63,395 nucleotides of DNA. It comes from a bacterium. Lineage in GTDB: Bacteria > Patescibacteriota > Minisyncoccia > Phycocordibacterales > UBA5272. The notes beneath the pieces are model-generated. The model was not told where the DNA came from, searched no databases, and saw only the letters and a program-made list of their open reading frames with translations. Positions 3,792-60,654 of the stretch are shown piece by piece. The number at the start of each line of letters is the position of its first letter. Position 1 is the stretch's first letter. The stretch covers positions 1-63,395 of the forward strand of contig JAYTSG010000033.1 of the NCBI GenBank assembly GCA_043745785.1. Direction: 5' to 3'. The position numbers were made by a program, and so were the translations under genes.

Positions 3792-3863
3792 GCTCTCGTA
3801 GTTCAATGGATAGAATATGGGTTTGCGGTACCCACGATGCAGGTTCGATTCCTGCCGAGAGCA
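3792..3863 (+). tRNA. tRNA-Arg (anticodon GCG)
   Basis: Acceptor gctctcg/cgagagc; anticodon loop UUGCGGU; T-arm gcagg-ttcgatt-cctgc. Confidence 0.8.
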
Positions 3864-3958
3864 CAACTGTGTGAGACAGACCGAGGTGCTTAAAAACAAC
3901 ATGTTTTGTATGTAGTTTTAATGGTTTACGAGGTTAACCTAGTATTGTTTACTAGTTT

Positions 3959-4633
3959 TTAAGAGCGTTCTTTACTATTAAGTATTTCTTGTGCAACCCT
4001 ATCATTTTCTTCTTTTGCTTGTTTTAGTGCCTCAGGTATTTTACCGATACTTTCGGCCATGTATGGAAGATCTTCTGCAGTATTTATCAGTGTGTCGTGT
4101 TCGCTGCCCTGCACATAAAACGACACGCCGATGAAGTTGGCGAGTTCCCGAGCACGAGCTAGTTCTTGGAAGCTTCGTACAGTTTGGTTTAATGCAGTGA
4201 AAGAATTTGTCGGTATTGGCAAAGGAATAGGTTTCCTGCCCTGATAGTACATGGAACTAGTTTGTTCACTTTTAAGTGTGATATAAAATGAGCTGTTTTT
4301 ACTCTCAACACCCTGAGTATTTACTGAAGAAGTAATAGTCTGATAAATGAAAACTATGTCAGCATAAGGGTATACAACACAGGTACTACCAACAATTCTC
4401 TTTTTTGTTACAGTTAGAGTTCTGGCGATACTATCCGCAGACACTGAAGTATTTGAGGATAAGAATAGAGCAACCAGCATAAAACAGAAGACAATAAGTG
4501 GAATGGCGACAGGTACAGTCTTTCCTGTTAAGAAAATAAAGAGTGTTATAAGGAAAACACTAGCACCAGTTAATCTTACTGGCCAGGCTGGACTGATGAA
4601 GGTTAATGTTGATGATGTGGGGGATGTTTCCAT
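3959..4633 (-). CDS. Hypothetical membrane protein (N-terminal TM helices)
   Basis: 224-aa ORF with hydrophobic N-terminal third; no recognisable family. Confidence 0.5.
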   Translation of the reverse strand: METSPTSSTLTFISPAWPVRLTGASVFLITLFIFLTGKTVPVAIPLIVFCFMLVALFLSSNTSVSADSIARTLTVTKKRIVGSTCVVYPYADIVFIYQTITSSVNTQGVESKNSSFYITLKSEQTSSMYYQGRKPIPLPIPTNSFTALNQTVRSFQELARARELANFIGVSFYVQGSEHDTLINTAEDLPYMAESIGKIPEALKQAKEENDRVAQEILNSKERS

Positions 4634-4641
4634 GCCAATTA

Positions 4642-5568
4642 TTATTTAACTGTTACTGTTGTTACAGAAGAAGACTGTAGTCTAGTTTTTGTATTTTTTG
4701 CTGTTAAGGTCTTTGTAAGAGTGCAGCCTATAAGGTAGGTATTAATCTTAAAAGAATCTTTCCCAGAAGCTGCAATATCTCGAGGCGGTCTTGTCTCATT
4801 TGACTTTGGATCAACACAACCTGTGGCTGAGTATGTCTCTGTAAGACTGTCAGCACCCGTTGAAGTCCATTCGTAATTCGCCCAATCACCAGCTGTAACA
4901 GTTATTTTGGTTGCTCCATTTGGAAAATCTGCACTTACAGAATAAGATATTATTGGTGCGGTGCCAGATGTTTTGTTGTTATCACTAGCGCCAGGAGCAA
5001 CATTAGCTGCTGTGGTATTCTTAATATAAAAATAATCACTCGTTCCTCCAGAATTATAAACTGTACTTACATTACTAAAAACTAACTGATATTTTTCATA
5101 CTGTTTTCTACTCATGTCTGGAACAGTAAAAGAAAACTTCCCGATTGTCTCGTCTGCATTACCTAATACTGTATCAAACTGGTACGTTGAATCAATAAGT
5201 CTAACTTGATATGAAGGTGCTCTAGCCATTTTGCCAGCAACCCATGTAACTGTATATGTTTGACCTGGCACAAGAACTGTTCCAAAACTTGGGTATGTGA
5301 CTTTAAAAGAAGTCACTTCTCTGTATTCCTCCGGAGTCATATCAGTTTTTGCCGTTTCTTTTACAATTTTTGTTAGTTGCTCGCCATCAGGTAATGCATC
5401 TGATTTAGTGGCAACACTAGCGGGAGTGGTTTGAAGAGCTTGACTATTTTTTATTTGTTTATATTTCCACAAACCCCCGACAGCGAGACAAATGACAAGA
5501 ATTAATACAAAAATTATTTTTTTCATACTATTTATTATATCATTTTTCAGTTCATTTGTCTTAAACAC
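4642..5568 (-). CDS. Hypothetical secreted or membrane-anchored protein
   Basis: 308-aa ORF; N-terminal anchor KKIIFVLILVICLAVGG; Thr/Ser-rich; no recognisable family. Confidence 0.55.
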   Translation of the reverse strand: MFKTNELKNDIINSMKKIIFVLILVICLAVGGLWKYKQIKNSQALQTTPASVATKSDALPDGEQLTKIVKETAKTDMTPEEYREVTSFKVTYPSFGTVLVPGQTYTVTWVAGKMARAPSYQVRLIDSTYQFDTVLGNADETIGKFSFTVPDMSRKQYEKYQLVFSNVSTVYNSGGTSDYFYIKNTTAANVAPGASDNNKTSGTAPIISYSVSADFPNGATKITVTAGDWANYEWTSTGADSLTETYSATGCVDPKSNETRPPRDIAASGKDSFKINTYLIGCTLTKTLTAKNTKTRLQSSSVTTVTVK

Positions 5569-5648
5569 CCCTGACCAAGAGGGTCCAAAATGTGTTTCCT
5601 GAAATTACTAGTAAGCCCTTATAGAGCTTGATTGTATAAAATCCGAGA

Positions 5649-5866
5649 CCGAGCGAGAGCACAGAATATAAAAGACCGAGAAGCCTCTCGGTCTTTTATA
5701 TTCTGTGCTCTCGGAGCAAGCAAACTGCTTTGCTTGCGTCAGGAATCGAAGGGTGGAGCTATGTTTTTCTAGCAAGAAAAACGAGCGAGCCGGGGTCGAG
5801 GAAATTTCGAGTGGCGACGAGAAATTATCCGTGACCGAAAGTGTACTCACATTTCCTGCCGAGAGC
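5649..5866 (+). repeat. tRNA-matched structured module, Arg-type copy
   Basis: 27-bp perfect hairpin 5655-5681/5686-5712; antisense acceptor tgtgctctcgg 5704-5714; hairpin H1 5715-5739; antisense T-arm caggaatcgaa 5740-5750; ccggggtcgag 5790-5800; sense repeat 5853-5866. Confidence 0.7.
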
Positions 5867-5998
5867 GCTCTCATGTGAGACAGGTCGAGAGGTTTATTTT
5901 CTTGGTCCCTAAAAAGACTATAGTTCAAAAGACGTACATATGAAGAATCCTCAAAAAAATTTTCTTTTGTTTGTTGTTCTGAGACAAAACAACTACAT

Positions 5999-9585: not shown

Positions 9586-9878
9586 TGGAAGAGAGGACTC
9601 AGTCACCAAACATATCTTTTACTTTTCTTTTTTAAAGTAAATAAAAAAGATATTTCGCTACATAAGGAAAACAGACAAAATCATTTCACAAAAACACTTA
9701 GGCTAATTTTCGTAAAAATTCCGTAATTAGTTTTTCATTTTGCCTCCTCTTTGTTTGATTTACAGCTTGATAGAGTTTTCCTAGGGATTAATCGTTTACT
9801 ATGAGTAGATTCTTTACTATCTATCTCCCACTAAAAATAAATATCACGAAGCAGGTGCTTCGTGATATTTATTTTTAG
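9586..9878 (-). repeat. Module downstream of tRNA-Val (partial homology to the Leu-type module)
   Basis: 33-bp perfect palindrome 9820-9852/9857-9889; on the minus strand aaaagatatgtttggtgac is followed by a degenerate tRNA-Val 3' copy gagtcctctcttcc (plus coordinates about 9586-9620). Confidence 0.5.
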
Positions 9879-11360: not shown

Positions 11361-11472
11361 TTTCTCTTTTTTGTGTTAGTATTCCCATACCTCATGAGTA
11401 TTTTGTAAGGAAAAAATTTCTCAAAAAAATTCTATTCCGTGTGTTAAATAAAAAAGTGAGAAAATAATGTTT

Positions 11473-11556
11473 GCCCAGGTGGCGGAATTGGTAGACGCAC
11501 TACCTTGAGGTGGTAGCGGGGTTATCCTCGTGGAGGTTCAAGTCCTCTCTTGGGCA
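11473..11556 (+). tRNA. tRNA-Leu (anticodon GAG)
   Basis: Acceptor gcccagg/cttgggc; anticodon loop UUGAGGU; long variable arm. Confidence 0.85.
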
Positions 11557-11815
11557 CAGAGAAATAAAAAACAAAGCTTTGTAGCTTTGTTTTTTATTTC
11601 TCTGTGCCCAAGAAGCAAGTGACCAATGTCACTTGCGTGAGGACTTGAAAGAATTGCCGGTCTACAGCTTTGAGTACTTCGAAAAGTTGTCGGCAATTCC
11701 CGGGGTCGCGAAACAATCTTTTTCTCAAGTCGAAGACGAAAAGAAAAAGATATGTTTGGTGACCAAGTCCTCTCTGTGCCCAAGAAGAAAGCAAACCGGT
11801 TTGCTTTCGTTACCA
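11557..11815 (+). repeat. tRNA-matched structured module, Leu-type copy
   Basis: 30-bp perfect palindrome 11548-11577/11584-11613; antisense acceptor 11603-11613; H1 11614-11638; antisense T-arm 11639-11649; cccggggtcgcg 11699-11710; sense T-arm 11764-11774; second antisense acceptor plus H1' 11775-11810. Confidence 0.7.
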
Positions 11816-12044
11816 AGTCTGATATCCTGATGATATTATTCTAACTATTACACATGAAAATAGTATACAAAGATAATGAATTTTAATCCTTGAAGAAAAG
11901 CCAAATGCAATCTTAATTATTGCTGGGGTATCGCTCGGCTTATTACTAGGTGTCACTAAACATCTTTACTCTGAAGACCCTGAGCTTTTTATTAGCACTC
12001 ATACGCATGTTGGTTTAGGGGCCATTGCTGTATTTCTGTTTGCA

Positions 12045-16699: not shown

Positions 16700-16771
16700 G
16701 TGGCTATAGTGTAACGGTTAGCACTAGGGTTTGTGGAACCCTCAGTTCGGGTTCAAATCCCGATAGCCACA
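16700..16771 (+). tRNA. tRNA-His (anticodon GUG)
   Basis: Acceptor gtggcta/tagccac (a G precedes at 16699); anticodon loop UUGUGGA; T-arm tcggg-ttcaaat-cccga. Confidence 0.85.
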
Positions 16772-16962
16772 CAAAAGTTCAAATCCCGATAAGTATACTT
16801 ATCGGGATTTGAACTTTTGTGTGGCTAAGCAAGCAAACTGCTTTGCTTGTGTGCGGGATTTGAAAGTCCGGAACATGTTTCGCTAGCAAGCGAAACGGTG
16901 AGGAGCGGGAGGCGAGAACTTTTTGTGGCGACAAAAAGTTACTTGCGGAAAAATCCCGATAG
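16772..16962 (+). repeat. tRNA-matched structured module, His-type copy M1
   Basis: 64-nt perfect palindrome 16764-16827; antisense acceptor 16820-16827; H1 16828-16852; antisense T-arm 16853-16864; H2 and H3 hairpins; sense repeat 16951-16962. Confidence 0.7.
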
Positions 16963-17042
16963 AATTTATCTAGATTTTTTGATAAATCTAATTTTATAGA
17001 GACATTGGTATTTAATAAAAATAGGAGTAGAATTAAAGTAGT

Positions 17043-18473
17043 ATGAAAGTAATAAAAATTTTGAGTATCACACTTTCTTTTGTATTAAGTCTTACTTTGC
17101 ATGCTTCCGCTGAAGGTAGTGCTTATACAGATATTATAGGTATCACGCACTACAGTAGCGGAGTAACTTCTCAGACTGACAGTATAGGCAATACGCACCT
17201 TAGTAACGGCGTAACATATTACACCGATTCTATTGGCAATACTCATTATAGTGGAGGATTAAACGGCATTAGTGGAACATCCTATACCGATAGTATAGGA
17301 ATTACACATTTTACATTTAGTGATGGAACTACAATTACAAAAGATACTGATGTAATAGGAAATACCCATTATACAGATAACAAAGGAAGAACAGGAACCT
17401 CATACACTGATAGTATTGGTAATACTTATTTTAGTGGTAGTTTGTTTCCTAGTAGTTGCCCATCGTATCAGGTCTATGATAATGTTCTTAATAAGTGCAT
17501 CATGAAGACTGCCTCCTCTGGTTCAAATAGTAATAATTGTACACAGTCAGAATTACTTTCTATAAAATCAAAATACAATATTGAAACACAGGAACAGCAA
17601 ATTAAAGATTTAAAAAATCAAATAACTGACCTTGATACACAAAGAAAATTGATACCAATTAAGCTCAACGAAGAAATGGTAGGAAGAGGTGCAACAGATT
17701 CAGGACTCGCCCCAATTCTTGCTAGCAGGTTAAGAGAAAATAGTAATAAGGTGACTGCCCTTAATATTCAACTTGAAGATGTATATTTAAAATATACGAA
17801 AGACATTAATTTAGTAAAAGAAGAATGTTATAGTCTTGGTGACAAAGCTTACCACAACACATTGGCTGTAAATACACAAAACAAAACTCAAGAAGTGGTG
17901 GTACCAACAGTAATAGAAGGTGGTTACATACGATGGCAAGATTTGTACTGTGACACTGGATACAACAAAGATATTGCTAACTTAAAATGTATAAGAGATA
18001 ATTCTGTCGCTATATGTTCTCAGAATCCAGACCAAAATGGAAACCTGTCAATGTCTTGTCGTTGTTCTGCGGGTTACAAATGGGCAGGTGGAACTAAGTG
18101 TCAGAAATATAATATCCAAACTGGTGAATTGATTGAAGAAAAACCTGTAACTGTTCAAACTACATCAATAGTCACTTCTACAACAAACAGTATTAACCAA
18201 AATGTAGTAAAAGCTACTTCTCCTGTAACTAAGATTAGTGATCCTTTTTTTACCAGAACCCTTAAAAGGGGAATGTCTGGTGACGACGTAAAACAATTGC
18301 AGACACTTCTTCAAAAGCTTAGTTACTTACCAAACACACAAACCCCTTCAACTTACTTTGGAGGTATAACAAGCAGTGCTCTTATAAAGTTTCAAAAGGA
18401 TAATAAGATACAGCCAGCAACAGGCTCCTTTGGCCCTGCAACACAAGCAAAACTACTCTCTCTAACCAAATAG
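17043..18473 (+). CDS. Secreted repeat protein with C-terminal peptidoglycan-binding domain
   Basis: Signal peptide; about 8 copies of a (Y)TDSIGNTHY motif; Cys-rich middle; C-terminal LKRGMSGDDVKQLQTLL...FGPATQAKL resembles PG_binding_1. Confidence 0.7.
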   Translation: MKVIKILSITLSFVLSLTLHASAEGSAYTDIIGITHYSSGVTSQTDSIGNTHLSNGVTYYTDSIGNTHYSGGLNGISGTSYTDSIGITHFTFSDGTTITKDTDVIGNTHYTDNKGRTGTSYTDSIGNTYFSGSLFPSSCPSYQVYDNVLNKCIMKTASSGSNSNNCTQSELLSIKSKYNIETQEQQIKDLKNQITDLDTQRKLIPIKLNEEMVGRGATDSGLAPILASRLRENSNKVTALNIQLEDVYLKYTKDINLVKEECYSLGDKAYHNTLAVNTQNKTQEVVVPTVIEGGYIRWQDLYCDTGYNKDIANLKCIRDNSVAICSQNPDQNGNLSMSCRCSAGYKWAGGTKCQKYNIQTGELIEEKPVTVQTTSIVTSTTNSINQNVVKATSPVTKISDPFFTRTLKRGMSGDDVKQLQTLLQKLSYLPNTQTPSTYFGGITSSALIKFQKDNKIQPATGSFGPATQAKLLSLTK

Positions 18474-18577
18474 ATTCTGACCACTCATCTGAGTTCTAAT
18501 CCCATCTACGACAGTACACATGTAATAGTAAAAGACTGAGCTTCTTGCCCAGTCTTTTACTTTACACAAAGTGACTA

Positions 18578-18696
18578 TTCGGGATTTGAACCGCTGATTA
18601 GCAAATCACGCCGTGAGGTGATGGCCGCAAGGAGCGAAGAGCGACTGTAGGTTTCGAGCACAGCAGTGCAAGAGGCAAATCCCGATAGCCATACAA
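18578..18696 (+). repeat. Partial His-type module M2 (lacks H1)
   Basis: cgggatttgaacc 18580-18592 is antisense to the tRNA-His T-arm; cgtgaggtgatgg...ggagcgaagagcgac is homologous to the M1 body; ends in sense repeat 18676-18696. Confidence 0.55.
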
Positions 18697-18912
18697 GAGA
18701 AAAAAGACAGCTTACGCTGCCTTTTTGTCTAGCTATCAGTAACAAGATCTAAGTTTTGTTATGTAGGATTTGAAAAGAAAACTGGTATATGGAATGATAT
18801 TTTAAAAATATAATTTTGCTAGTTTTCTCCGGGGTCGAGACTACATGCCAAGATGAAAAAAAGCAAAACTTTTGAAGCGATCCATAGCTGTGACCAAATA
18901 TTCCGATAGTGG
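18697..18912 (+). repeat. His-type module M3
   Basis: H1-like taacaagatctaagttttgttatgt 18740-18764; aggatttgaaa 18765-18775; ccggggtcgag 18829-18839; gtgacc, then degenerate sense repeat 18897-18912. Confidence 0.6.
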
Positions 18913-19009
18913 CACTAATTCATAATTAACTAAAAATATCCTTACATATCAGGAGATTTTTAGCTCCGACATTTGTCTACTCAGTAGAGAATTACATTGA
19001 ATGTCATAA

Positions 19010-19426
19010 ATGGTATACTATTTTTATATGAAAGGATTTATTTCAAATATTGAAAAAGAAACTCTAGAAAATGATGCTTTCCGTAAGGTTTTATACACAG
19101 GAAAACATAGTCAATTAGTTTTAATGAGTTTAAAACCTCAAGAAGAAATTGGCTCAGAGACTCACAATGAGAATGATCAGTTCTTTCGTTTTGAGAGTGG
19201 AGAAGGAAAATGTTTTATTGATGGGAACGAATATGATTTAAGCGATGGTGTGGCTGTCATTATTCCATCGGGCGCACAACATAATATTATTAATATCTCC
19301 GAAACAGAAGATTTAAAATTCTACACAATGTATTCTCCTGCACATCATAAAGATGGAATTATAAGAAAAACAAAAGAAGAAGCAGAAAACAACGAAGAAG
19401 ATTTTGATGGTATGACTTCGGAATAA
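19010..19426 (+). CDS. Cupin-domain protein
   Basis: GSETHNENDQFFRFESGEG...IIPSGAQHNIIN two-motif cupin pattern; real start may be 19028. Confidence 0.6.
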   Translation: MVYYFYMKGFISNIEKETLENDAFRKVLYTGKHSQLVLMSLKPQEEIGSETHNENDQFFRFESGEGKCFIDGNEYDLSDGVAVIIPSGAQHNIINISETEDLKFYTMYSPAHHKDGIIRKTKEEAENNEEDFDGMTSE

Positions 19427-19487
19427 AAAGAAGGATTCAATTATTCAGCACCATACAGCTTAGTTTTAATACCAGCTACAATAGTAG

Positions 19488-19690
19488 ACAAAATTTAAAT
19501 CCCGAAAGGTAAACCTTTCGGGATTTAAATTTTGCGAATACTCATAACAAGATCTAAGTTTTGTTATGTTAGATTTGAGTAAGATATCCGTATTTTCTGG
19601 AGTCGAGACTATGAGCCGAGATAAGAAGGTAAAACTTTTGAAGCGATCCGTAGTGTTGACTAAACATCATAATGATCACACCGTTTTGTG
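19488..19690 (+). repeat. His-type module M4 (paralog of M3)
   Basis: Hairpin 19490-19533 containing ttaaatcccgaa; 25 nt identical to M3 H1 (19546-19570); ctggagtcgag 19597-19607; aaaacttttgaagcgatcc shared with M3. Confidence 0.6.
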
Positions 19691-20122
19691 AGTTCACTTT
19701 GTAGTACAGATATTAAATTAAATTTACCTAAAATATCCTTATGAAAAAATATTTTTTGTTTATAACTTACGTACAGACGTCGTTAGGTATAGAATGTATT
19801 ACAATCACTGAGCTTGATTAAAGGTCTTTTTTCAAAATTCTCAAAACTTTACTGCATTATTATTCTTGTGAAAGCAGATCCAAGACATGATTTAATAATT
19901 CAGAATACAGTATATTTCAGGATAATACTGGACCCTAGTCTCCGTTTAGAGTGACAGCAGGGGATCTTTTGAAAGAGGCCTAATGATTATTTGAAAAATA
20001 GTAGAAAATGACGAGTCAACTATAGAGAGTATTTATACTAGCTATAGTTGGGTGATGTTAGATTTAATTTTAAAAAAGCAAACTTAGACGGACTCTTCCA
20101 TGTGAGTTTGTTTCCAGATACC

Positions 20123-40350: not shown

Positions 40351-43300
40351 ATGGAAGACAAAAAAATAACAATATCAAAGACAATCAATGAAAAAGAACT
40401 TGAAACACTTGCCTTTTGGAATGAAGCAAAGATTTTCGAAAAGTCAGTAGAAACCCCAGCAGGGAGTGCTCCAGTCGGAAACTTTTCTTTTTACGACGGA
40501 CCTCCTTTTGCGACTGGACTTCCTCATCATGGGCATATACTTGCCGGAACCATCAAAGACACCATACCTCGCTATCAGACGATGCAAGGCAAACGTGTGC
40601 GCCGTATGTGGGGCTGGGATTGTCACGGTCTGCCTATAGAAAATCTTATAGAAAAGAAATTAAACTTATCATCTAAAAAAGCTATTGAAGAATATGGTAT
40701 TGATAAGTTTAATCATGAGGCGATGAACTCTGTCCTCGCCTACGATACAGAATGGAAAAAGATAGTGCCGCGTCTCGGTAGATGGGTAGATATGGAACAT
40801 CCGTATAAAACAATGGACGCCACCTATACAGAAAGTGTGTGGTGGAGTTTTTCTGAATTACATAAAAAAGGTTTTGTCTACGAAGGAAATAAAATGATGC
40901 ATATTTGTCCGAGATGTGAGACACCACTAGCACAAAGTGAAGTCGGTCTTGAATACCATGATGTGACGGATATTTCAGTGACGGCTAAGTTTGAGCTCAT
41001 TGATCCTACTACACCGGATAATCATCCTTCTTCTTCTGAAACCCTGAAAGAGTTCAACTCAGAGAATTCTACCAAAAAGACTTATATTCTGGCATGGACG
41101 ACGACACCGTGGACTTTGCCAGGTAATACTGCCCTTGCTGTGAATAAAGGTATCACTTATGTGAAAGTTAAAGCTGTAAAGAAATCAGTATCTGTTAATA
41201 GTATTTCGGATAGAGATGTCTCAGGAGGGGATGATATCGTATGTGTATATTTTATTTTAGCTAAATCAAAATTTCAAGAATATAAAGCTTTTTCGGAAAA
41301 AGATTTTATGATTTTCATAGTCGAAGAAGAATTTTCTGGAGAAAAACTGATTGGAAAATCATATAAACCAGTTTTTCCTTATTTTGTAGATAAAGAAATG
41401 GATAATAGAGAAAATCTTTTCAAAATATGGCATGCAGACTTTATTACTGATGATACTGGTACAGGTATCGCGCATGAAGCGCCAGCATTCGGAGCAGAAG
41501 ATATGGATCTTGCAAAGGAAAATAATATCCCCGTTATAAAGCATGTCAAAATGGATGGCACGTTTACTGTAGAGGTGACTGACTTTGCTGGCATGAAAGT
41601 GAAAGTTAAAGACGATACACAGTCAGCAGACATAGAAATCATCAAGTATCTCGCGTATCACGGGTCACTTTTTGAAAAACATAAAATAATACACTCGTAT
41701 CCATTATGCTGGAGATGTAAAACTCCGCTCCTTAATTATGCGACTAGTTCATGGTTCGTCGATGTTCCAAGTTTTAGAGATAAACTTGTTTCAGAGAATC
41801 AAAAGATTGGTTGGACCCCAGAGCATATGCGCGATGGACGATTTGGTAAATGGTTAGAAGGCGCTCGTGAATGGGCTGTTTCGAGGCTTCGCTACTGGGG
41901 AGCCCCACTGCCTGTTTGGAGAAGTGAGAGTGGAAAAATAAAAGTTATTTCATCACTGAAAGAACTTGCCGAACTTTCTATAACCAAACCAAAGAACAGT
42001 TATTTTGCGATGAGACATGGGCAGTCACTCTATAATACAGAGCAAAAGCTGGACTCCCTTGGTGTGGAAGAAAACGTCCTGACAGAGGTGGGAAGAGAAA
42101 AAATAAAATCTCAAAGAGAAGTATTTAAGAAAGTAGGTATTAATATCATTCTCGTTTCTCCTCTCCCTCGCACGAGAGAGACAGCTCATATAGTAAGTGA
42201 AGGCAGTGATGTAAGTATCATTATTGAGGAGAAGCTTCGTGAGTTTGCCTTTGGAGAATTCGAAGGTAAAAGTTCAGACGAGTTTCATAATCATAAAACT
42301 CTACATGAACATTTAGACGAAAAAGTAGAAAAAGGAGAGTCATTTCGAGATCTTGCTAAAAGATTTATGCAGGTAGTAGCTGAGTGTGAAGAAAAATATG
42401 AAGGTAAAAAAATACTTTTTGTAACACACGGTTCCAATGCATATATGGGTCGAGCTGAAGCTCATTTGTGGACTGATGAAGAAATCTTACAGGGTAACAA
42501 TGAGCTCACTGTCCATAATGGTGAATGTATACCTATAGAAATTAAAATGGTTCCGCGCGATGCCACAGGGGCCGTTAACTTACATCGCCCTTATATAGAC
42601 GATGTTGTTTTAGATATAGATGGTGAAGAGTATAGACGTATTCCTGACGTGTTTGACTGCTGGTATGAGTCTGGCTCTATGCCGTATGCTTCGCTCCATT
42701 ATCCTTTTGAAAATAAAAAGGTCTTTGAAAATAATTTTCCAGCTGACTTTATTGCAGAAGGGCTCGACCAAACTCGCGGATGGTTTTATTCACTGATGAA
42801 CCTTGGAGTTGGTGTTTTTGATAAGTCTCCGTATAAACAAGTAGTAGTCAACGGTACTATTTTGACTGGTGATGGTGAAAAAATGAGTAAAAGTCTGAGT
42901 AATTTTACCGACCCTATGCTTCTTGTGGAAAAGTATGGAGCAGATGCACTTCGTTATTTCTTGCTTTCTTCCCCTGTAGTGAAGGGAGAAAGTATGGAGT
43001 TTCATGATAAAGGAGTGGAAGATGTTTATAAGAAAGTTATTGGTCGCTTAGAAAATGTGGTGTCACTGTATATGATGAATAAAGATGAAGCAGTAACAGC
43101 TAAAGCAGACAGTACGAATGTTCTTGATATCTGGATAGTAAGCCTACTTCATGCCATGCAGAGAAATGTGACTATAGCCTATGATACATATAAACTTGAC
43201 GAAGCAACGAGACCTCTTGAAAGTTTTATCGACAGTCTTTCTGTCTGGTATGTCAGACGCTCAAGAGATAGGTTCAAAGGGGTTCTTGGTGAGCTGGAAA

Positions 43301-43938
43301 AACGTGAGGCTCTCGCTACTCTTAAGTATGTACTGCTCGAGCTCGCAAAAATGATGGCACCGGTTATGCCATTCCTCGCGGAGCGCATATATCTTGAAAT
43401 GGGTGGAGGAAGTGAGAGCGTCCATTTGGAGAAATGGTCGGCTATAAAACCTCTTGTAGATACCGAAGCGGAGGGTGTCAAAAATATGTCTCTCACCAGA
43501 GACTTTGTGTCAGTGCTTTTAATGCAAAGAACCAAAGCAGGTATACCTGTACGTCAACCGCTAGCTAGTGCAACTATCAATGATAGCTTACCTGAAGTGT
43601 ATCTTGAAATTATTAAAGAAGAAGTAAATATCAAAAAAATCCTTATTGATACAAGAGAAAAAGAAGAGGTGTCGATTGAGACGACTATGACAAAGGAGCT
43701 TATCCGCGAAGGAGATATCAGAAATATCATGAGATCTCTTCAAGATACTCGTAAAGAAAAAGGGATGACTCAGGGTGACATGGCGCAAGGAGAAATAGCT
43801 CTCACTCTTACGGAAAGTGAGAGAAATGAAATCATGAAAGTATGTAATCTTTCTACACTTGCTTTTGTTTCCGAAATAGAAAATGCGAATAAGTCTCAAG
43901 TATCTTTTGGTAAGATTTTATTTTCTGTAAAGCTGTAA
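40351..43938 (+). CDS. ileS: Isoleucyl-tRNA synthetase carrying an internal histidine-phosphatase-like domain
   Basis: HIGH (PHHGH) and KMSKS motifs and editing domain; extra segment at about aa 548-735 with RHG, SPLPRTRETA and THG motifs. Confidence 0.85.
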   Translation: MEDKKITISKTINEKELETLAFWNEAKIFEKSVETPAGSAPVGNFSFYDGPPFATGLPHHGHILAGTIKDTIPRYQTMQGKRVRRMWGWDCHGLPIENLIEKKLNLSSKKAIEEYGIDKFNHEAMNSVLAYDTEWKKIVPRLGRWVDMEHPYKTMDATYTESVWWSFSELHKKGFVYEGNKMMHICPRCETPLAQSEVGLEYHDVTDISVTAKFELIDPTTPDNHPSSSETLKEFNSENSTKKTYILAWTTTPWTLPGNTALAVNKGITYVKVKAVKKSVSVNSISDRDVSGGDDIVCVYFILAKSKFQEYKAFSEKDFMIFIVEEEFSGEKLIGKSYKPVFPYFVDKEMDNRENLFKIWHADFITDDTGTGIAHEAPAFGAEDMDLAKENNIPVIKHVKMDGTFTVEVTDFAGMKVKVKDDTQSADIEIIKYLAYHGSLFEKHKIIHSYPLCWRCKTPLLNYATSSWFVDVPSFRDKLVSENQKIGWTPEHMRDGRFGKWLEGAREWAVSRLRYWGAPLPVWRSESGKIKVISSLKELAELSITKPKNSYFAMRHGQSLYNTEQKLDSLGVEENVLTEVGREKIKSQREVFKKVGINIILVSPLPRTRETAHIVSEGSDVSIIIEEKLREFAFGEFEGKSSDEFHNHKTLHEHLDEKVEKGESFRDLAKRFMQVVAECEEKYEGKKILFVTHGSNAYMGRAEAHLWTDEEILQGNNELTVHNGECIPIEIKMVPRDATGAVNLHRPYIDDVVLDIDGEEYRRIPDVFDCWYESGSMPYASLHYPFENKKVFENNFPADFIAEGLDQTRGWFYSLMNLGVGVFDKSPYKQVVVNGTILTGDGEKMSKSLSNFTDPMLLVEKYGADALRYFLLSSPVVKGESMEFHDKGVEDVYKKVIGRLENVVSLYMMNKDEAVTAKADSTNVLDIWIVSLLHAMQRNVTIAYDTYKLDEATRPLESFIDSLSVWYVRRSRDRFKGVLGELEKREALATLKYVLLELAKMMAPVMPFLAERIYLEMGGGSESVHLEKWSAIKPLVDTEAEGVKNMSLTRDFVSVLLMQRTKAGIPVRQPLASATINDSLPEVYLEIIKEEVNIKKILIDTREKEEVSIETTMTKELIREGDIRNIMRSLQDTRKEKGMTQGDMAQGEIALTLTESERNEIMKVCNLSTLAFVSEIENANKSQVSFGKILFSVKL

Positions 43939-60044: not shown

Positions 60045-60260
60045 GACATTTAGGGTCTTTCCGTCGCAAGTACTCGCGAGCTCATCTCGCTTGTTTTAGT
60101 TTTGTCTTGAACCCAACAAAACTAAAACATAGCTGCGACCGTTCGAATCCTCACAGACGTGAGCGTCTCCCAATATGATTCTCTAATCAGCGGTTCACGT
60201 CTTCCATCTCCACAGAAAATAAAAGTGCGACACCTTTCGGTGTCGCACTTTTATTTTCTG
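60045..60260 (-). repeat. tmRNA-matched module
   Basis: 31-bp perfect palindrome 60204-60234/60239-60269 includes the tmRNA 3' end; on the minus strand tgggagacgc, hairpin ctcac-gtct-gtgag, ggattcgaacgg (antisense T-arm), then atgttttagttttg...caaaactaaaac hairpin and gtacttgcgacggaaag as in M1. Confidence 0.55.
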
Positions 60261-60654
60261 TGGAGATGGGCGGATTCGAACCGCCGTGTACAAAAGGGTA
60301 AGGGTAGCATCTACGTTACGTAGTTTGCTTTTATATGTCTCGACATCCTCCTCTAAAAAACAAACCAAATGAGAAAGATGTCAAAGCACATTGTTTCGGA
60401 ATTTCTCTGTGCGTGTAGAAGTTCCTACGCTCGTAAGTATATTGCCCACACTTTCTCTTACGAGTAAAGAAAAAGGGGACACCAGGTTGGCGTATTACGC
60501 GAACGCTGGAGCAAATCCGAACGCCATATATGGTGAAGGGATAGCCTTAGCAGTTTTGTTTGCACAAAATTGTTACAACAAGCTTAACGAAATTTGTTGC
60601 CACTTCGGTGACGCACTACCTCTACCTTTTTTGTATCGATACCAGTACATCCCC
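60261..60654 (-). ncRNA. ssrA: tmRNA (SsrA)
   Basis: 5' GGGGAUG pairs with 3' CAUCUCC-A including G3:U; T-arm ggcggttcgaatccgcc; tag ORF 60563..60495 encodes ANKTAKAIPSPYMAFGFAPAFA*; lies downstream of smpB. Confidence 0.85.

Follow-up and report, generated by a model that had tools for sequence, protein, structure and literature searches.

The stretch of DNA analysed here comprises positions 1 to 63,395 of contig JAYTSG010000033.1 (assembly GCA_043745785.1, a bacterium of the Patescibacteriota) and is referred to as the window. It has a G+C content of 38% and carries housekeeping genes only. Behind its gene for tRNA-Leu(GAG) lies a non-coding module which contains an antisense copy of the 3' end of this tRNA, folds into several hairpins and ends in a short direct repeat of the tRNA (Table 1). 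Related modules are found at other tRNA genes of the window and in other genomes. We give a probability of about one half to the reading that these modules are a small non-autonomous mobile element of ~150-250 nt, which inserts at the 3' ends of tRNA and transfer-messenger RNA (tmRNA) genes in Patescibacteria (candidate phyla radiation, CPR) and Elusimicrobia, the site being chosen by a guide.

The tRNA gene runs into a perfect palindrome. A preliminary description of this locus had given it arms of 30 bp (11548-11577 and 11584-11613), which are indeed exact reverse complements when checked by script, the arms extending to 31 nt. Its parts are, in order, the acceptor 3' strand, an A-rich tract, a GC stem (CAAAGCU/AGCUUUG), a U-run and the antisense acceptor, a composition that resembles a bidirectional intrinsic-terminator hairpin. 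In the predicted fold of tRNA plus module the palindrome sits within one long hairpin. The guide starts at 11603 and the tRNA ends at 11557, which lies within the roughly 100 nt behind a same-strand tRNA or tmRNA by which members of the family are defined. Guide parts A and T, when joined, are the exact reverse complement of 11537-11558 (22 of 22 positions), that is of the tRNA from T54 to two nucleotides past the discriminator, as had been claimed. The Leu copy thus has the split guide of the family, an antisense of tRNA positions 54-73 with the 25-nt hairpin H1 between its halves. The terminal GAA of part T falls inside the junction.

The body starts with hairpin P2, whose outer 9-bp helix gaattgccg/cggcaattc is the variable P2 of the long-P3 subtype (CGAAACAAU...AUGUUUGGUGACC); the Leu copy belongs to this subtype together with L005, L018, L044 and L121 (numbers of this kind denote loci in other genomes). 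P2 varies in sequence among copies and is missing in a 'mini' subtype (modules in L143, L138 and L141). The two strands of the helix occur once each, at 11651 and 11691, and so does the string cccggggtcgcg at 11699. The P3 hairpin ends in GGTGACC, followed at once by aagtcctctc (together 11758-11774), so that the right repeat begins at tRNA position 57 as in most members of the family. The same repeat of 10-12 nt is found in the orthologous loci L143, L138, L141 and L126. H1, the helix and cccggggtcgcg were all confirmed where the preliminary description placed them, as were caagtcctctc (11764-11774), a second tgtgcccaaga (11775-11785), a second hairpin H1' (11786-11810) and a 16-mer, ctctgtgcccaagaag, that is present at 11600 and again at 11772.

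Table 1. Features of the Leu locus and related modules in the window. R1 is the covariance model described in the text.
Feature	Position	Strand	Basis or remark
tRNA-Leu(GAG)	11473..11557	+	ARAGORN and Rfam
Perfect palindrome, 31-nt arms (11548-11578 / 11583-11613), 4-nt loop, 100% complementary	11548..11613	.	repeat finder
Leu module	11603-11773	+	R1 35.9 bits, E = 2.8e-8
Guide part A, tgtgcccaaga, antisense of acceptor 3' strand + discriminator + 2 nt	11603..11613	+	sequence
H1, 25-nt, 9-bp hairpin (A-G-stem-loop-stem-C-G-U), interrupts antisense copy at T-stem/acceptor boundary	11614..11638	+	
Guide part T, gaggacttgaa, antisense of T-loop + T-stem 3' strand (tRNA positions 54-64)	11639..11649	+	
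P2 hairpin, outer stem gaattgccg/cggcaattc	11651..11699	+	folds, type-II alignment
Conserved core CCGGGGUCGCG and long P3 hairpin closed by GGUCG/UGACC, 3' terminus GUGACC	11700..11764	+	invariant columns, covariance model alignment
Right direct repeat aagtcctctc = tRNA positions 57-66	11765..11774	+	
Putative remnant tandem module: antisense acceptor 11775-11785, H1' 11786-11810, tACC 11811-11814, AAGTC 11815-11819	11775..11819	+	
Arg-guided member: palindrome 5654-5713, module 5704-5854, degenerate repeat 5850-5868	5654..5868	+	R1 136.9 bits, E = 4e-35; copy in seed
His-guided member directly behind tRNA-His	16764..16965	+	R1 71.3 bits, E = 1.1e-17; palindrome
M3, degenerate His-guided copy	18740..18904	+	R1 14.3 bits, E = 0.015
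M4, more degenerate His-guided copy, motif CTGGAGTCGAG	19533..19679	+	R1 11.2 bits, E = 0.1
tmRNA-guided member, enlarged H1, palindrome 60204-60269	60058..60269	-	R1 21.1 bits, E = 2.4e-4

This second unit had been taken for a duplicated antisense-acceptor/H1 unit. It is certainly present, but it reads as an older, separately inserted tandem module and not as an internal duplication, because a tRNA is often followed by several modules of different subtypes in tandem, decay being most advanced in the outermost repeat. The sequence of H1' differs from that of H1, its tACC is the tail of GTGACC and AAGTC is the beginning of its repeat. From its sequence, 11548-11819 is best described as two tandem insertions, one intact and one decayed, in the second of which the body was apparently deleted down to tACC|AAGTC while the antisense acceptor and H1' were kept. 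The junction ctc|tgtgccc would be the expected product of a palindrome deletion between two CTC repeats. The covariance model matches the second unit (11775-11839) weakly and non-significantly (8.5 bits, E = 0.52). Similar tandem remnants are seen in relatives (L138; also L044, L061 and L121).

The module family and its conserved structure

For the generation of the covariance model R1, 40 modules of the commonest subtype were aligned, 39 of them from other genomes. The window copies were scored with filters off, and the Leu locus was recognised as one copy of a repeated module, in agreement with the preliminary description. In the RNAalifold consensus, H1 is followed by P2, which is in two parts and has a conserved internal loop (G-G/C-A facing G-A), and by P3, which GGUCG/UGACC closes. 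The junction of P1b, P2 and P3 is formed by near-invariant strands (GAAA, GGC/GCC and GGGGUCG...GUGACC). Compensatory double changes were found in 26 of 34 pairs, and in H1 at 9 of 9 pairs. In total, 94.5% of the cells are paired, compared with 69.8% in shuffled alignments (none of 500 shuffles reached the observed value) and 32-42% when the partners were slid. Double changes make up 346 cells versus 99 ± 9 after shuffling and 55-95 after sliding, which confirms that the helix changes are compensatory far beyond chance. The replacement originally noticed in H1 is compensatory as well, the Leu H1 showing four fully compensated base pairs when compared with the Arg and His H1.

A G.U pair that is unchanged in 40 of 40 sequences identifies the + strand as the one that folds. 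The + strand was also more stable than the - strand in all six window copies when folded. In detail, the + strand of the Leu module has a predicted energy of -73.2 kcal/mol (z = -9.1) with RNA parameters and the - strand one of -64.6 kcal/mol (z = -6.0). DNA parameters gave the same structure (z = -9.0).

To collect further members, one genome per species was scanned with the three-motif pattern GGANTYGAA..CCGGGGTCGNG..GTGACC, and all counts from this sample refer to the matches listed. At least 120 stretches were obtained, nearly all from metagenome-assembled genomes of Patescibacteria (including Paceibacterota, Saccharibacteria, Kaiser-, Adler-, Yonath- and Nomurabacteria) or Elusimicrobia, in addition to a few chance matches in GC-rich genomes. 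Among the matches listed, 93 lie 37-356 nt downstream of a tRNA or tmRNA on the same strand, and 17 tRNA types plus tmRNA are represented. R1 found 116 hits within the first 100 loci of the sample and none in the GC-rich chance loci. The closest matches to tRNA plus module of the window, again among those listed, come from Saccharibacteria (L052 and L075), which pointed to this group as the probable source of the window. A 'mini' subtype (L143, L138, L141, L126, L131 and L121) lacks P2 and reads GAA-UA-GGGGUCGCG-P3-UGUGACC; by its sequence it appears to define the minimal core of guide, H1 and P3.

Within the window the tRNA flanks follow one order. They start with the 3' end of the tRNA, original or copied, and continue with a hairpin or terminator, antisense acceptor, H1 and antisense T-arm. 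Then come a body containing CCGGGGTCGAG and GTGACC and, last, the T-arm in sense orientation, to which the acceptor may or may not be joined. Besides the palindrome at tRNA-Leu, the window has four perfect ones of 28-37 nt, located at the 3' ends of the tRNA-His, tRNA-Val and tmRNA genes and, in the Arg module, at a copied tRNA-Arg acceptor. When the window was searched with Rfam 15, only tRNA and tmRNA reached the gathering score, and E-value scans of 5600-5950 and 11540-11850 gave merely spurious microRNA-like hairpin matches to the palindromes. Whatever the mechanism, the modules make up a large, strongly covarying structured RNA family that is absent from Rfam. No description of the element was found in the literature searched either, and the finding reaches beyond the Leu locus.

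Guide and right repeat

Among the matches listed, the guide complements its own tRNA at 19 of 19 positions (54-72) in 32 of 93 modules and at 18 or more in 53 of 93, as opposed to 3 of 930 comparisons with non-cognate tRNAs. The antisense T-arm matches the tRNA contiguously from T54 onwards, with a mode of 11 nt, and the insert between the antisense halves is exactly 25 nt long in 27 of 45 parsed modules. A minority of modules has no H1 and carries a contiguous antisense of 15-24 nt instead. The sense repeat after GTGACC begins at tRNA position 57 (TTC|GAATCC) in 76 of the 93 modules listed. Intact repeats (at least 16 nt) are, save for two outliers, 16-31 nt long and end at the tRNA end or up to 13 nt beyond it.

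Where tRNA and right repeat differ, the guide follows the tRNA in 331 cases and the repeat in 13; restricted to positions 57-64 the figures are 111 and 2, and at positions not constrained by the search pattern 278 and 11. Guide complementarity is equally high in modules with decayed and with fresh repeats. Of the variants in the right repeat, only 27% would still pair with the 5' strands of the tRNA, and they look like neutral decay. Since the guide follows the tRNA and not the repeat, a closing helix between guide and right repeat was rejected as a maintained interaction. Two other candidates were rejected as well, namely that the right repeat is a functional foreign tRNA end in a horizontal chimera (no more than 27% of its variants pair with the tRNA 5' strands) and that the guide is the counterpart of a primer-binding site for a tRNA primer (in the window it matches the gene trailer and not the added CCA).

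There are several possible reasons for the asymmetry between guide and repeat. The pairing of guide and tRNA may be functionally maintained in place, new insertions may recombine with older tandem copies and so join a young guide to an old repeat, or template-switching during replication of the long quasi-palindrome may correct the guide arm to the selected arm in the tRNA.

In an alternative explanation, the module is a tRNA-linked RNA that serves the host by acting, in cis or in trans, together with the tRNA next to it, the repeats being the scar of its arrival. It might act as a platform for processing or termination (an entry site for RNase III, P or Z), as an antisense regulator or quality-control RNA for the 3' half of the tRNA, or by making the tRNA gene unavailable to other elements that would attach there. 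That the guide follows the tRNA, that its complementarity persists next to heavily decayed repeats and that these repeats seem to decay neutrally would all be accounted for. In addition, the Elusimicrobia module is placed for co-transcription with the tRNA, before the original terminator, and perfect duplexes of 28-37 bp are plausible substrates of RNase III. Nevertheless we consider a host-serving role unlikely. Only a minority of orthologous tRNA sites is filled (14 of 47 for Leu(GAG), 13 of 42 for Val(TAC), 4 of 24 for Arg(TCT) and 3 of 19 for His, as counted with R1), which indicates that the module is dispensable. The same site holds different subtypes in related lineages and decayed tandem copies pile up, which is typical of repeated insertion. 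According to the predicted fold, pairing to the 3' half would unfold the tRNA, and collapse of tandem copies or template switching in the quasi-palindrome could place a young guide beside an old repeat with no host function involved.

Insertion and the possible nature of the element

Loci with the order RluA-L19-tRNA-Leu(GAG)-tRNA-His were fetched through the L19 protein, so that this sample is unbiased as to the module. In it, 34 of 41 R1 hits lie at most 120 nt behind a tRNA. Empty Leu-His sites have a spacer of 12 nt (L166 and L167) or 58-65 nt (L139, L146 and L147), and filled ones of ~220-285 nt with one module each, the subtype of which differs (L126, L131, L138, L141, L143 and L151); in the window the spacer measures 5.1 kb. 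The modules that fill the same orthologous site may be of the mini subtype, of type I or of type II. Orthologous sites that are empty or filled with different subtypes, together with the tandem arrays, indicate that the element inserts. In Elusimicrobia the module directly follows the tRNA with no terminator in between, and the right-hand copy holds an encoded CCA and the original terminator. The functional tRNA copy is now without an encoded CCA in L067, L088, L083 and L063, also Elusimicrobia, suggesting that the insertion changed the 3' trailer of the tRNA.

No recurrent family of recombinases, transposases or reverse transcriptases was found in ~100 loci (stretches of up to 8 kb, 1,258 clustered open reading frames (ORFs), only housekeeping), nor did Pfam detect a transposase, integrase or reverse transcriptase in the 63-kb window. 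A linked recombinase was rejected for the window, as both ORFs of a 2-kb insertion that ends in the Arg module (see below) are without a transposase domain and the other ORFs are housekeeping. Cargo, defined as more than 350 nt between target tRNA and module, was present in 1 of ~138 candidate modules of a relaxed motif scan, namely in the Arg copy of the window, and the idea of a gene cassette was dropped because cargo is essentially unique to this copy. In a promoter scan, promoter-like sites were no more frequent than in shuffles.

Integration by tyrosine integrases has a classic signature, namely direct repeats that cover the tRNA 3' end, beginning in the T-loop. Ordinary attachment-site (att) scars of integrase-driven prophages or islands, combined with the usual tRNA terminators, might thus produce such loci without any dedicated element, and the Arg copy does border a 2-kb insertion with two ORFs. 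Indeed, integrase islands and prophages also insert into tRNA and tmRNA genes at the 3' part that begins with the T-loop, restore the tRNA by the duplicated segment and accrete in tandem. The modules have these direct repeats, but an integrase gene within the insert is lacking. They also measure only 150-250 nt, have no integrase nearby (~100 loci and window) and serve at least 17 tRNA types through a nucleic-acid guide instead of the specificity of a protein. Scars would moreover not account for a conserved ~100-nt core which two phyla have in common and in which 26 of 34 pairs covary, for an antisense guide specific to each tRNA or for the identical junction GTGACC|57. In 2.9 million viral contigs the pattern matched twice only, both times by chance and without a match to the covariance model, and a phage origin was rejected accordingly. 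By its covariation, the specificity of its guides and the missing linked recombinase, the family effectively refutes the explanation by att scars.

The mobile element to which we give about even odds may be pictured as follows. It encodes no protein and would specify a structured single-stranded nucleic acid. This molecule is most likely RNA, read through from the tRNA promoter, because of the strand asymmetry, the invariant G.U pair, the GA-rich loops and the co-transcription layout in Elusimicrobia. Its split guide (antisense acceptor, H1 and antisense T-arm), which is complementary to tRNA positions 54-73, would pair with the tRNA gene or its transcript and choose the insertion site. The element would be inserted between C56 and R57 by an unlinked trans-acting enzyme, be it a recombinase, a nuclease or a polymerase; insertion by the RNA itself is less likely. 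Such an insertion would keep the tRNA intact and duplicate its end, beginning at position 57 in the T-loop and reaching the 3' terminus or slightly further, and the element would for this reason always end in GUGACC|R57.

A number of points weigh against this picture. The pattern sample is biased towards intact copies, as three conserved motifs were required. The guide still complements the tRNA when the repeat is decayed (85.5% versus 69% at positions outside the search pattern), and an element that is purely selfish accounts for this no better than a function in situ or hairpin-templated gene conversion. In Saccharibacteria the tRNA is separated from the module by a strong terminator, so that expression of an RNA would need read-through or a separate promoter. 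The chemistry of the insertion is entirely inferred, and the re-matching of guides to at least 17 different tRNAs lacks an explanation in this model. A more specific proposal, which we put forward tentatively and hold to be the case with less confidence than the element as such, is that of a programmable element without a protein gene: an RNA that rides on tRNA transcription, carries a split guide with which it would recognise any tRNA gene in the part between T-loop and acceptor, and depends on an unlinked, possibly housekeeping enzyme or on its own catalysis, with the guide being re-matched by copying or conversion. Such an RNA would insert its own copy between positions 56 and 57 and restore the tRNA in doing so, and would be a new class of mobile element.

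In integron attC sites and the attP site of CTX phage, the substrate is set by its fold and not by its sequence, the enzyme acts in trans and arrays grow at one attachment point. The module would share these three properties. It could be a folded single-stranded DNA (ssDNA) recombination site in which guide and sense tRNA segment rebuild the duplex end of the tRNA gene and H1 marks strand or orientation, and which an Xer-like or HUH-type recombinase of the host exchanges with the tRNA gene on the chromosome. DNA parameters do predict the same structure (z = -9.0), and a single long, perfect inverted repeat is made up of the tRNA 3' end, the trailer and the guide. H1, P2 and P3 are conserved in structure far more than in sequence, no protein encoded by the element would be needed, and arrays with the newest unit beside the attachment site, such as the His array of the window, resemble cassette arrays. 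The invariant G.U (G.T) pair, the GA-rich internal loops and the GAAA strand of the junction are, however, features typical of RNA, and the Elusimicrobia layout suits co-transcription. Cargo is nearly always absent (all but 1 of the ~138 candidate modules), neither an IntI nor a HUH gene was found nearby (window and ~100 loci), and no integron-type GTTRRRY core is present; in the Leu module, RYYYAAC/GTTRRRY core sites are absent from the sequence. In contrast to attC and attP, the module also has no Xer site and carries a guide complementary to the target besides its RNA-like motifs. Taken together, a DNA site of this kind seems to us quite improbable, still more so than a host-serving RNA.

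Related systems and further observations in the window

The closest known logic is that of the IS110 bridge RNA. In IS110/IS1111 elements, a structured RNA on the mobile element carries guides complementary to the target which covary with it; the two guides within a bridge loop each pair with a different one of the DNA strands, and the donor is recognised by another loop (PMC11208160). Like this bridge RNA (seekRNA), the module would be a structured RNA of ~150-250 nt; its guide segments flank a hairpin and are complementary to the insertion target. Unlike in IS110, where the bridge RNA lies beside the gene of a DEDD/Tnp recombinase, no such Pfam domain was found in the window and none is recurrent in ~100 loci. 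Both halves of the module's guide are antisense to one strand and contiguous on the target, in contrast to the layout with two loops for target and donor. IS110 duplicates a short core only, whereas insertion of the module duplicates 10-30 nt.

Guide RNAs of OMEGA systems (TnpB/IscB) and group II introns are similar in that the element's own non-coding RNA pairs with the insertion or homing site. The module differs from them by its much smaller RNA, its long target duplication and the lack of a TnpB, IscB or reverse transcriptase gene in the window and in ~100 loci. Rfam models of ωRNAs and introns gave no match, the sole hit of the IS605-orfB-I model being one of 10.7 bits on the palindrome (E = 6.9). 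Self-cleaving ribozymes and group I and II introns also gave no Rfam match in the window or in scans of 5600-5950 and 11540-11850. A hammerhead or other ribozyme was rejected for two reasons: CTGATTAG in the tmRNA unit and in a type B unit of the window is not CUGANGA, and the order of the junction strands is incompatible with a hammerhead. Miniature inverted-repeat transposable elements are likewise short, non-coding and non-autonomous, occur in many copies per genome and are polymorphic in presence and absence. They differ from the module, which has no terminal inverted repeats (its ends being guide/terminator and GTGACC), a duplication of 10-30 nt, a strict target (tRNA 56|57) and a covarying internal structure with a target-specific guide.

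If the interpretation as a guided element is true, then an element that is guided by base pairing with tRNA genes and has no recombinase of its own is widespread in Patescibacteria and Elusimicrobia, whose very small genomes have few known mobile elements. Next to CRISPR transposons, OMEGA systems, group II introns and IS110 bridge RNAs it would represent a new kind of DNA insertion guided by a nucleic acid, and would imply an unlinked partner enzyme of possible use in genome engineering. The modules account for the odd perfect palindromes and the repeats of tRNA ends in these phyla, at which assemblies break and the annotation of tRNA flanks is confused, and filled or empty tRNA sites as well as inversions between copies are markers for evolution at the strain level.

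Behind tRNA-His of the window (16700-19700) lies an array of ~3 kb with four His-guided units, two of them with cargo ORFs. In detail, the array consists of the module at 16817-16965, an ORF with a peptidoglycan-binding domain (17043-18473), a type B unit (18574-18700), M3 (18740-18904), a cupin ORF (19010-19426), a palindrome (19487-19527) and M4 (19533-19679). The type B unit has a contiguous antisense, a body with CCGCTGATTAG and a sense copy, caaatcccgatagccataca. The 11-mer CCGCTGATTAG is found at 18591-18601 in this unit and at 60183-60193 in the enlarged H1 of the tmRNA module and nowhere else, which suggests that the two share a sub-domain.

Behind tRNA-Arg(GCG), an insertion of 2 kb (3841-5896) is bordered by an imperfect repeat of ~52 nt (3841-3892 and 5845-5896) and has the Arg module with its palindrome at the right end. 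It contains two ORFs on the minus strand (3959-4633 and 4642-5568), for which one weak, sub-threshold Ig-like match was obtained; judged from the translations, their products look membrane-bound or secreted. Behind tRNA-Lys (1215-1450, - strand), a terminator is followed by a different insert of ~190 nt, whose last 17 nt repeat the 3' end of tRNA-Lys (atccctgctggggacac, ~1222-1238); it may belong to a further family that inserts by the same logic. The tRNA-Val gene is followed, on the other strand, by an inverted copy of 43 nt (9590-9632, 88%) of the 3' end of the Leu module (11733-11775). In relatives (loci L125 and L130), tRNA-Val, tRNA-Arg and tRNA-Leu are inverted along with their modules, so that the copies may mediate inversions.

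The motif TGTGTTAG(A/T)GTA is found just upstream of tRNA genes, in the window at 11375-11390 and upstream of tRNA-His in L126, L131, L138, L141 and L143, and is probably an extended -10 promoter element of this lineage. Finally, the isoleucyl-tRNA synthetase of the window (40351-43938, 1,195 aa) has a histidine-phosphatase (His_Phos_1) domain inserted at residues 553-695.

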